Below are positions 34,245-35,434 of a stretch of 64,000 nt of DNA, piece by piece. Numbering within the stretch: the stretch's first letter is position 1; each line of letters begins with the position of its first letter. Origin of the DNA: Klebsiella phage vB_KpnM_Tauntaun_ER47. A program made the position numbers and the translations under genes. The notes below the pieces were generated by a model. It saw only the letters and a program-made list of their open reading frames with translations. It made no database searches and was not told where the DNA came from. The DNA is taken from sequence record PP738783.1; one strand, given 5' to 3'.

Positions 34245-34323
34245 AGGATCTCCTTTCCTCTATTTAGCGGGGAACGGGATCAAAGCGGCCTGACGGGGTA
34301 ATATAAAAATTTGAAGAAAATGC

Positions 34324-34352
34324 TTGACCTTTTAAAATCTTTGATCTATAAT
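34324..34352 (+). promoter_or_regulatory. sigma70-like early promoter P1: TTGACC-17 nt-TATAAT, with an upstream TGCTT (MotA-box-like)
   Basis: aaTGCTTGACCttttaaaatctttgatcTATAATaat. Confidence 0.55.
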
Positions 34353-34439
34353 AATTATTAATTAAAATTTTATCAAAAAGATCTAACAAGATCAAGTAAA
34401 ATTTAATAAATAATTTATCAAAAATTTTTAGATCTGATC

Positions 34440-34468
34440 TTGAATTCATAAATTTTATGATCTATAAT
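34440..34468 (+). promoter_or_regulatory. sigma70-like early promoter P2: TTGAAT-17 nt-TATAAT
   Basis: cTTGAATtcataaattttatgatcTATAATat. Confidence 0.5.
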
Positions 34469-34613
34469 ATATTAATATTTTATTTTATCATAAATTTTTA
34501 TGAAGATCAATACTTAGATCTAATAAATTTTATGCTTTTTCTGAAAACTTTTCCTTTACCCCGTCACTAAATACTGGTACTATGTTCCCATATTGGAAAT
34601 CAGGAAAAACAAA

Positions 34614-35402
34614 ATGACTCACTTGAAAAAATTCAAAGAATTTCTGACCGAAGGTAAAACCCTCGCTCGTACCGTAGCACGTGGTCAACGCGCTAAAACT
34701 TCCGATAAACATTCAATCGGTTTTCTTCACTTCAAACATGGTTCTGATTTCGAAGTTTTAGCACCGGATTCTCACGATCTGGCATACTTCGGTAAAAACA
34801 TTGTACGTTTGAAAGGTATGACTACTGGTAAAGTTCAAGCGGCTTATGTCGATTGGGCTAAAGGTACTGTTTCTTTCTACAGTGGCAATCCGGATGATGA
34901 TCTGGATTTCGACAAACCAGAAAAATTCAAAGCTGCTACTCTGTATGAAGAGGCGGAAGAAAATCTGGATCTGTATAACCAGTTAGCAGAAGATTTCGAA
35001 ATCGAGATCCCTATGGATGAAGCTCTGGTGAAAGGTAAAGTTTACAAACTCCCAAGCAACGATATGCGTCTTCTGTACACTGGGCGTTCTAAAACTAAAG
35101 CAAGCGGTGAATATGCAGTGTTTACCGTAGTTGATGCTTCCGGCAAACCTCGCCTAGTATCTGGTAAAAAATTCACCCAAGAATATAAAGGCGATATGGT
35201 TTCTAAACTGGTTCTGGCTGAATCCGAAGATCTGAATGAAGCGGCTAAAGGCATTCGCGAAAAAGTTATTGCTGTGATGGTGAAACGCGGGTTTAACGAA
35301 AAAGATGCAGAAAAGATGGTTGACAAAAACCTGAAAGATGCTATGAAAGTTAGACCTGGTGCGACCCCTGGCAAACTTGCAGAAATAGTTAGCACCCTGT
35401 AA
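34614..35402 (+). CDS. candidate internal head protein with a T4-type capsid-targeting sequence (262 aa; Lys/Glu-rich)
   Basis: The N-terminus MTHLKKFKEFLTE/G parallels the T4 IP targeting sequence MKTYQEFIAE and the local gp67 N-terminus MMKEFIEAIK, with an L-x-E cleavage context for gp21. RBS AGGAAA. It is a plus-strand insert between minus-strand genes 3 and 2. Confidence 0.5.
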   Translation: MTHLKKFKEFLTEGKTLARTVARGQRAKTSDKHSIGFLHFKHGSDFEVLAPDSHDLAYFGKNIVRLKGMTTGKVQAAYVDWAKGTVSFYSGNPDDDLDFDKPEKFKAATLYEEAEENLDLYNQLAEDFEIEIPMDEALVKGKVYKLPSNDMRLLYTGRSKTKASGEYAVFTVVDASGKPRLVSGKKFTQEYKGDMVSKLVLAESEDLNEAAKGIREKVIAVMVKRGFNEKDAEKMVDKNLKDAMKVRPGATPGKLAEIVSTL

Positions 35403-35406
35403 AAAT

Positions 35407-35434
35407 AAAGCCCCTTCCTTTCGGTTGGGGCTTT
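35407..35434. terminator. bidirectional terminator, an exact copy of 2178-2205
   Basis: aaagccccttcctttcggttggggcttt plus a T run, at the convergent junction with gene 2. Confidence 0.6.

Follow-up and report, generated by a model that had tools for sequence, protein, structure and literature searches.

In phage T4, genes 3 and 2 lie next to each other in the same orientation, 106 bp apart in the T4 record. Why, then, are their counterparts in Klebsiella phage vB_KpnM_Tauntaun_ER47 split by an open reading frame (ORF) on the opposite strand, and what does this ORF encode? We addressed these questions in a 64,000-nucleotide stretch of the phage genome (sequence record PP738783.1; hereafter, the window), in which a 369-bp spacer with 25% GC (34245-34613) and an ORF for 262 amino acids separate gp3 from gp2 (Table 1). 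An earlier interpretation made from the letters alone (the sequence-only reading) had recognized the AT-rich spacer, the opposite-strand ORF and the T4 gene order, all of which hold up, and had suggested an inserted cassette encoding an injected internal protein with a T4-type capsid-targeting sequence (CTS). The ORF corresponds to KP27_206 (AEX26671) of phage KP27 and gp175 of phage KP15, and is "hypothetical" in all annotations. The interpretation that we favor, tentatively and at slightly less than an even chance, is that it encodes a capsid-targeted head protein processed by the prohead protease, the conserved part of which brings along a C-terminal module that can be exchanged, first into the head and then, probably, into the host. 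What we infer from the sequence is that the protein would be directed to the capsid, cleaved, kept in the head, injected and active in the host. The product is plausibly a variant on the T4 theme of capsid-targeted proteins, exemplified by the internal proteins and Alt, rather than a new principle.

The argument begins with the N-terminus. Among the 1,749 Met-started ORFs of at least 50 amino acids in the KP27 genome, which was assembled from four pieces, KP27_206 ranks first in N-terminal similarity to KTYQEFIAE, the core of the CTS of the T4 internal proteins IPII and IPIII (MKTYQEFIAE; PMC8442874). Against the start of T4 IPI, which begins with MKTFKEF in the T4 record and is read as MKTFKEFTSTTTPVSTITE/A (a slash marks the known or predicted cleavage position), it ranks joint second. 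The leader of the window protein ends in the motif FLTE13/G. Its homologs, which lack three extra residues present in the window protein, start with MKSFKELLSES, MKTFKELITES, MKNFKEFLNEV, MKQFKQFLSEV or MKNFKEFMTES, and the motif at the leader end is matched in relatives by LSE/S, ITE/S, LNE/V and INE/S. The pattern MK[STNQ]FK[EQD][FLYM].x.E[SVG] is kept in 17 family members, down to 29% identity. Pairwise identity is 0.62 in the leader, 0.33 in the next 22 residues and 0.69 in the folded core (residues 36-110); because the leader is conserved and the linker that follows it is not, the leader appears to be under a constraint of its own. In the structure model, residues 1-14 are of low confidence (predicted local distance difference test, pLDDT, below 50); residues 5-12 form a short helix, and the residues beyond it are disordered, which would leave the candidate cleavage site accessible. 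These observations strengthen the proposal of the sequence-only reading that the N-terminus resembles a T4-type leader with a prohead-protease site (LTE13/G). The start of the phage's own gp67, which was quoted there for comparison, is (L)MKEFIEAIK at 62985 in the window, and matches the form quoted if the preceding Leu codon is the start.

The CTS-like start could, alternatively, be a coincidence, given that MK.FKE.. is a common beginning. In that case, which we consider doubtful, the ORF product would be an unpackaged late cytoplasmic protein, for instance one involved in head-tail joining, the handling of DNA ends or late manipulation of the host. Such a role would fit the position of the gene between gp3 and gp2/gp4, the label "tail completion protein" in one record, the occurrence of MKSF-type N-termini in other, probably unpackaged phage proteins, and the fact that the protein is not basic. 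However, coincidence does not readily account for a leader that is far better conserved than the residues after it and is the best match to the T4 CTS genome-wide, nor for protease-type motifs at all module boundaries. The gene is also not part of the gp2-gp4 operon: it lies on the opposite strand, between a promoter and a terminator of its own.

T4 gp21 cleaves after Glu in an [L/I]-x-E context, as in Alt, which is cut at ITE-6 and LTE-619 (PMC5694885). The corresponding machinery is annotated in KP27, with gp67, gp68, gp21 and gp22 at 129176-131302; the phage gp22 starts with MLKEQLLAE/A, and gp23 contains FLAE/AEIAGDHGY. This FLAE/A lies where T4 gp23 is cut during maturation, the mature N-terminus of the T4 protein being AEIGGDHGY. 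In the family of the ORF product, whatever the architecture, [LIM]-x-E-[ASV] recurs wherever one domain or module gives way to the next: at E13, LAE126, MDE136/A, LAE203/S and LNE209/A in the window protein, with INE/S and IDE/A between the modules in the two-module forms. The boundary motifs coincide with the low-pLDDT linkers of the structure model, namely, 1-14, 128-136 and 204-211. With a potential cut site at every joint, this layout provides the best of the new evidence that the protein could be a prohead-protease substrate.

Between these joints lie folded units, including compact beta domains with pLDDT of 80-88. The second beta domain, missing from short family members, is preceded by LAE126/D and MDE136/A, the latter in the low-confidence linker. 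In family alignments, residues 1 to ~205 are conserved and are followed by alternative C-terminal modules: A (three-helix), B (~70 amino acids), C (~105 amino acids), B plus A, or none. The members without a module are those of RB43 (203 amino acids) and P0018 (133 amino acids, the first domain only). Module exchange can be traced between close relatives. The genome of KMI7 shares 99% identity with 33714-35242 of the window and 98% with 35399-36293, and the segment in between, 35243-35398, which encodes module A, is replaced by 312 unrelated bases encoding module C; the breakpoints are located directly after LNE209/A and at the stop codon. Neither module B nor module C yielded any match in Pfam and PHROGs. 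In KP27, module A has a counterpart encoded by a gene of its own, the free-standing KP27_019 (L002 9551-9712, minus strand; 53 amino acids, phrog_9411), a paralog with 50% identity that we infer to be early from its position in the genome. Additionally, module A is found at the N-terminus of P0024, an unrelated protein of 236 amino acids.

A protein with cut sites at its joints might instead be an accessory of the prohead core or scaffold that is targeted by its leader and chopped by the protease, the pieces then leaving the head, so that its role would be in assembly and nothing functional would be injected. In T4, gp22, gp67 and gp68 are chopped by the protease and their pieces leave the head; gp67 and gp68 are acidic. 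The seven [LI]-x-E sites in 262 residues, at every linker, the acidic N domain (isoelectric point, pI, of 5.3), similar to T4 core proteins and to KP27 gp67, the fixed position of the gene among head and tail completion genes and the core of a late-type promoter are all compatible with this possibility. We nevertheless find it decidedly improbable. Scaffolds are typically helical or made of acidic low-complexity sequence, whereas the protein is predicted to form compact beta folds, and neither the swap of the C-terminal module between near-identical phages nor the loss of domain 2 or the modules (RB43, P0018) is expected of a scaffold. Furthermore, the family is missing from T4, other tevenviruses and most T4-like phages and thus is not a core assembly part.

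The preferred reading, a processed head protein with an exchangeable module, also draws on a late-promoter-like element. The regions upstream of the ORF are otherwise unalignable between divergent loci, and TAAATA is invariant in 6/6 of these, 38-48 nt before the ATG. In the window, the octamer with this core, ACTAAATA (34566-34573), is located 48 nt 5' of the ATG, and an identical octamer stands 36 nt before gp6 at 41250. Among the relatives, JC221 and L010 carry a perfect TATAAATA, the exact T4 late consensus, RB43 carries AATAAATA, and L009 and Phynn carry TCTAAATA; the exact consensus occurs in six copies in the window, none of them preceding the ORF. The motif NNTAAATA precedes clear late genes, in the form TATAAATA at gp7, gp19 and gp20, ACTAAATA at gp6 and GCTAAATA at gp3. 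In KP27, TATAAATA is found before gp22 and AATAAATA before gp23. At the position of the gp3 octamer, RB43 and JC221 have TATAAATA, and L010 has CCTAAATA. A literature search covering KP15, KP27, phiEap-3, RB43-like and Karamvirus phages found no transcriptome.

Upstream of the late-type element, the spacer holds two sigma70-like promoters and is generally rich in such sequences, with 12 promoter-like sites compared to 4.0 +/- 2.0 in shuffles (~threefold). The sequence-only reading had these two promoters bracketing the cassette; both are present, but they lie in tandem upstream of the ORF, and counterparts of the two were not found in the other genera scanned. Early transcription from these promoters is the basis of a further alternative, under which the product would be an unpackaged host-takeover factor acting in the cytoplasm; its SH3/Tudor-like domains and small helical module might, for instance, engage the RNA polymerase of the host or one of its recombination or repair proteins. 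We regard this as quite unlikely. T4 ipI, which encodes a proven packaged protein, is directly preceded by an early-type GTTTACA-17-TACTAT within a stem-loop, with no TATAAATA; because ipI itself has such a promoter, an early-type promoter is no argument against packaging.

The favored scenario of a packaged and processed head protein would unfold as follows. The N-terminal leader, equivalent to the T4 CTS, would direct the precursor (p29) to the assembling prohead core, where the gp21-type protease would cut it after Glu13 (FLTE/G) and, probably, also at MDE136/A, LAE203/S and LNE209/A. The folded pieces, that is, the conserved "carrier" beta domain and the small basic three-helix module, would remain inside the filled head and be delivered to the cell together with the DNA. 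The conserved late-type promoter would supply the protein during head assembly, and in slopekviruses, the two strong sigma70 promoters would add early expression. The C-terminal module would be the exchangeable, host-facing part. An anti-defense function of the ORF product is pure conjecture, and the fold, family and literature searches returned nothing that bears on it.

Several observations weigh against this scenario. The body of the protein has no detected homology to the T4 internal proteins: in a direct comparison with KP27, T4 IPI matched only a leader, IPI being the only internal protein compared directly and the others having been covered indirectly, via PHROG and tblastn. Small size and a highly basic character mark the T4 internal proteins (PMC8442874), unlike the predicted mature product (residues 14-262), which is a 27.6-kDa protein with a pI of ~7.9; its N domain has a pI of 5.3, and basic character is confined to the C-terminal ~50 residues. 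Starts of the MKSF type are not rare in the genome, examples being the 57B-like protein (MKSFLEITKP) and KP27_148 (MQSFKQITES), and the similarity of the leader to the CTS may partly reflect a general N-terminal bias. The number of [LI]-x-E sites, 7 in 262 amino acids, compares with ~3 expected by a rough estimate, and such sites are common in Glu/Leu-rich linkers. The octamer ACTAAATA upstream of the ORF scores 6/8 against the T4 late consensus. In five relatives, TAAATA is embedded in a sigma70-like element, TTGATC-N17-TA[TC][CG]AT (four of these pass a 9/12 scan, and JC221, at 8/12, was read by eye), and could simply belong to the spacer between the boxes of an early or middle promoter. Because TAAATA falls within this element, the conserved block may serve in late transcription, as a sigma70-type promoter or in both ways. 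The free-standing module A gene, if early, suggests a cytoplasmic role without packaging. Finally, none of the virion proteomes found in a literature search was from Slopekvirus, Pseudotevenvirus or Karamvirus; for T4-like Klebsiella phages, the search yielded a single one, from Jiaodavirus, which we believe to lack a homolog of the ORF.

The distribution of the gene speaks to its age. A tblastn search detected it in 177 phage records, including Slopekvirus, RB16 and RB43 (Pseudotevenvirus), related phages of Enterobacter, Cronobacter and Citrobacter, Yersinia phage JC221, Pantoea phage Phynn and others. The same search produced no tevenvirus match; T4 and most T4-like phages are outside the family, and only 13 matches were found among 1.84 billion representative proteins. 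In every locus inspected, namely, RB43, JC221, Phynn and two metagenomic contigs (47-57% identity), the gene order is gp3 (-), ORF (+), gp2 (-), gp4 (-), gp53 (+), gp5 (+). The sequence-only reading had envisaged a hyperplastic cassette and proposed a search of related phages for different cargo at the junction of genes 3 and 2. This expectation is not supported: RB43, JC221, Phynn and the metagenomic relatives have the same gene in the same position and on the same strand throughout, and the plasticity is limited to the C-terminal module. A position fixed in relatives coupled with a conserved housekeeping role was named there as one of the outcomes that would speak against the proposal; the fixed position is observed in the relatives inspected, whereas no housekeeping role is known. 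The family is narrow, but within its branch of the T4-like phages the ORF is long established and fixed in place, and not a recent acquisition. In Escherichia phage phT4A (KX130727.1, 96749-97535), the ORF matches in two pieces that are annotated as two hypothetical proteins, which points to a frameshift that may be due to a sequencing error or may mark a pseudogene.

Comparison with known systems sharpens both the likeness and the differences. Similarly to the T4 internal proteins, the ORF product has a leader of ~10-13 residues of one type (MKTFKEF and MKTYQEFIAE in T4, MKSFKELLSE and KKFKEFLTE here) that ends in [LI]-x-E before a small residue, in a phage that encodes the gp21/gp22 machinery. 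As in the case of ipI, which is located four genes from gene 3, beside 57B, in the T4 record, there is a sigma70-type promoter directly upstream. Unlike the internal proteins, the ORF product has no homology in the body, is three times larger, multi-domain and near neutral, and has predicted internal cleavage sites; the position of its gene is conserved and only the C-terminal module is exchanged, in contrast to wholesale replacement. The packaged ADP-ribosyltransferase Alt of T4 is of the larger, low-copy type and is trimmed at both ends at [IL]-T-E (PMC5694885). Its LTE motif is identical to LTE13, and it offers a precedent for removal of ~60 C-terminal residues (PMC5694885). However, Alt shows no sequence or fold similarity to the ORF product, which has no recognizable enzyme domain, and the Alt leader, MELITE, differs from the CTS of the internal-protein type. 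The locus also resembles the promoter-stem-loop (PeSL) cassettes of T4-like phages, in which an early promoter overlaps or adjoins a stem-loop bordering a variable gene (Arbiol 2010; Comeau 2014), with near-consensus sigma70 promoters and a repeated stem-loop delimiting a unit that is exchanged among close relatives and with the right KMI7 breakpoint at the stop codon and terminator. In contrast to PeSL cassettes, the promoters (34324-34468) and the stem-loop (35407-35434) are on opposite sides of the ORF and do not form a composite element, and the left KMI7 breakpoint is inside the coding sequence, at a linker. Many overlapping promoter/terminator pairs are present elsewhere in KP27, none of them at the ORF locus.

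Might the same features mark additional packaged proteins? We combined three of them in a filter: NNTAAATA no more than 100 nt upstream, a Shine-Dalgarno sequence and [LI]xE[ASG] within the first 25 amino acids. The filter was passed by 5 of the 864 KP27 starts, those of gp22, gp23, KP27_206, KP27_252 and KP27_067, and the recovery of two classic gp21 substrates among these five suggests that it is meaningful. The N-terminus of KP27_067 is a weak match to the DnaJ J-domain, and we treat this protein as a probable false positive rather than cargo. KP27_252 (KP27 141455-142294, minus strand, outside the window) is a zeta-toxin-like P-loop protein of 279 amino acids (PF06414, E = 2.8e-7) that is unrelated to the ORF product. 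Its start, MKSFKQFTESTLTE/ALITFGG, is the best KP27 match to the T4 IPI start, and AATAAATA is found 34 nt upstream. The family has 1,611 homologs in many T4-like phages, and the start MKSFK[DEQ]F...L[DT]E/A is conserved among the 120 best-scoring of these; KP27_252 is a candidate packaged kinase. A bolder extension of the preferred reading, in our estimate unlikely, is that the RB43/KP15 group employs a polyprotein-like vehicle, in which a CTS leader and a conserved carrier domain would convey small interchangeable cargo modules into the prohead, the prohead protease freeing each of them at an [LI]-x-E-[AS] linker for injection with the DNA, and the KP27_252 kinase, with its shared leader, would be injected as well.

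Proteins that are co-injected with phage DNA act ahead of phage gene expression and are a known route to disarm host defenses, as in the case of T4 IPI* and GmrS/GmrD. Klebsiella slopekviruses are widely used as therapy candidates, and we know of no internal protein identified in these phages. If the ORF product is packaged, the capsid-targeting signal of this clade would be defined, providing a handle for loading foreign proteins into slopekviruses, and the variants of the swappable C-terminal module might track host range. Taken as sequence rules, the leader, the TAAATA core and the [LI]-x-E linkers nominate the zeta-toxin-like kinase as a second cargo. Should the polyprotein-like vehicle exist, many T4-like phages would inject a kinase at the start of infection, given that KP27_252 shares the leader.

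Table 1 Features of the locus between gp3 and gp2 (positions in the window)
Feature	Position	Strand	Description and evidence
gp3, tail completion/sheath stabilizer, left flank	33714-34244	-	176-amino-acid ORF; annotated gp3 in KP27
Putative late-promoter octamer for gp3	34261-34268	-	GCTAAATA; 24 nt 5' of gp3 ATG
AT-rich core with inverted repeat	34291-34566		TGACGGGGTAA (34291-34301) / TTACCCCGTCA (34556-34566)
Sigma70-like promoter P1	34324-34352	+	TTGACC-17-TATAAT, 11/12; promoter annotated here in KP27
Sigma70-like promoter P2	34440-34468	+	TTGAAT-17-TATAAT, 10/12; KP27 annotation
Conserved promoter block	34566-34583	+	ACTAAATA at 34566-34573; -10-like TACTAT at 34578-34583
ORF	34614-35402	+	262 amino acids, start MTHLKKFKEFLTEGKTLAR; Shine-Dalgarno AGGA at 34602-34605, 8 nt 5' of ATG
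Leader, residues 1-13, candidate CTS	34614-34652	+	MTHLKKFKEFLTE, ending LTE/G
N-terminal beta domain and helix, residues ~20-127	34671-34994	+	Best conserved part of the family; structure model, alignments
Second beta domain, residues ~143-196	35040-35201	+	Missing from short family members; structure model, alignments
Linker with tandem candidate protease sites	35208-35246	+	LAE203/S and LNE209/A; pLDDT < 50 at residues 204-211
Swappable C-terminal module A, residues ~211-262	35243-35398	+	Basic three-helix bundle, pI 9.8
Intrinsic terminator between ORF and convergent gp2	35407-35434	both (KP27 annotation)	AAAGCCCCTTCCTTTCGGTTGGGGCTTT
gp2, DNA end protector, right flank	35439-36293	-	phrog_429, E = 8.8e-72; PF26869 Phage_T4_gp2 in relatives

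The segment 33700-36300 is 99.5-99.9% identical to that of many Klebsiella slopekviruses, including PTP25, phiKp_1, KP27, Miro and phiEap-3. The assignment of gp3 is in line with matches to Phage_T4_gp19 (E = 1.5e-5) and to the phrog_45 tail tube family (E = 4e-43); beyond gp2, the genes are gp4, gp53 and gp5. Searches with the ORF itself were largely uninformative: it has no Pfam family, matches only the PHROG families of unknown function 7322 and 9411, and gave nothing at E <= 1 in a profile search against PDB. Foldseek comparison of the structure model found nothing below E = 0.04 in PDB, without a recognizable enzyme domain, and only uncharacterized phage proteins in BFVD. Structure prediction, suggested as a check in the earlier analysis, thus returned folded domains but no fold or family pointing to function. 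Part of the model is matched by a protein of 118 amino acids from Vibrio phage nt-1, with a template modeling (TM) score of 0.62. A candidate catalytic His/Asp motif (H39, H42, D45, D52-S-H-D55) was discarded given that the divergent P0015 and P0019 replace several of these residues.

The terminator downstream of the ORF has an exact copy at 2178-2205, as noted from the sequence earlier (chance expectation 0), and folds with -16.9 kcal/mol (z = -4.0 vs shuffles). In KP27, the 28-nt terminator is one of three near-identical stem-loops (64133, 101599 and 136095), and at or close to each of them, the annotation has terminators on both strands; the family may act as a recombination substrate in the manner of PeSLs.

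Within the spacer, GATC occurs 10 times compared with 0.8-1.3 expected (p < 5e-5), and 8/10 of these sites are in the AT-rich core (34291-34566). Most have the form (A/T)GATCT, and two, in the form GATCTATAAT, adjoin -10 boxes; a Dam methylase, KP27_267, is among the phage proteins. In relatives, the AT-rich core of the spacer is likewise surrounded by GC-rich inverted repeats of unrelated sequence (CGAGCGAAGCGAG), located at 2786-2798 and 2917-2929 in L010 and at 2259-2269 and 2415-2425 in L007. Thus, the architecture of the repeats is kept and the sequence is not, with two divergent late-promoter-like octamers located outside the repeats. An Rfam search of the spacer found nothing. A MotA-box middle promoter, suggested by eye from TGCTT at 34533, was rejected because there is no -10 element at the proper spacing. 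The two ORFs annotated in the PTP25 spacer (61 amino acids, L001 6565-6750, minus strand, window ~34264-34449; 37 amino acids, 6758-6871, plus strand, ~34457-34570) are not credible: they overlap the promoters and have no conserved counterparts in other genera, the spacer being AT-rich and itself unconserved in relatives, and probably arose as artifacts of annotation.

Two proteins mentioned above have N-termini of their own interest. The N-terminal ~78 residues of gp2 match phrog_32288, "HTH DNA binding protein" (E = 7e-20), ahead of the end-protector domain, and its start, MSFIFEFEIIAEEDK, includes an I-A-E motif. The MQSFKQITES of KP27_148 (L004 27632-28054; a homolog of T4 rI.-1, phrog_858/DUF5856) is read from an internal Met, and T4 rI.-1 starts with MKFSDF. 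In Jiaodavirus virions purified on CsCl, 26-27 spectra came from a protein that bears the same annotation as KP27_148, starvation-inducible transcriptional regulator, and may be its homolog (PMC13119998, Table 3).

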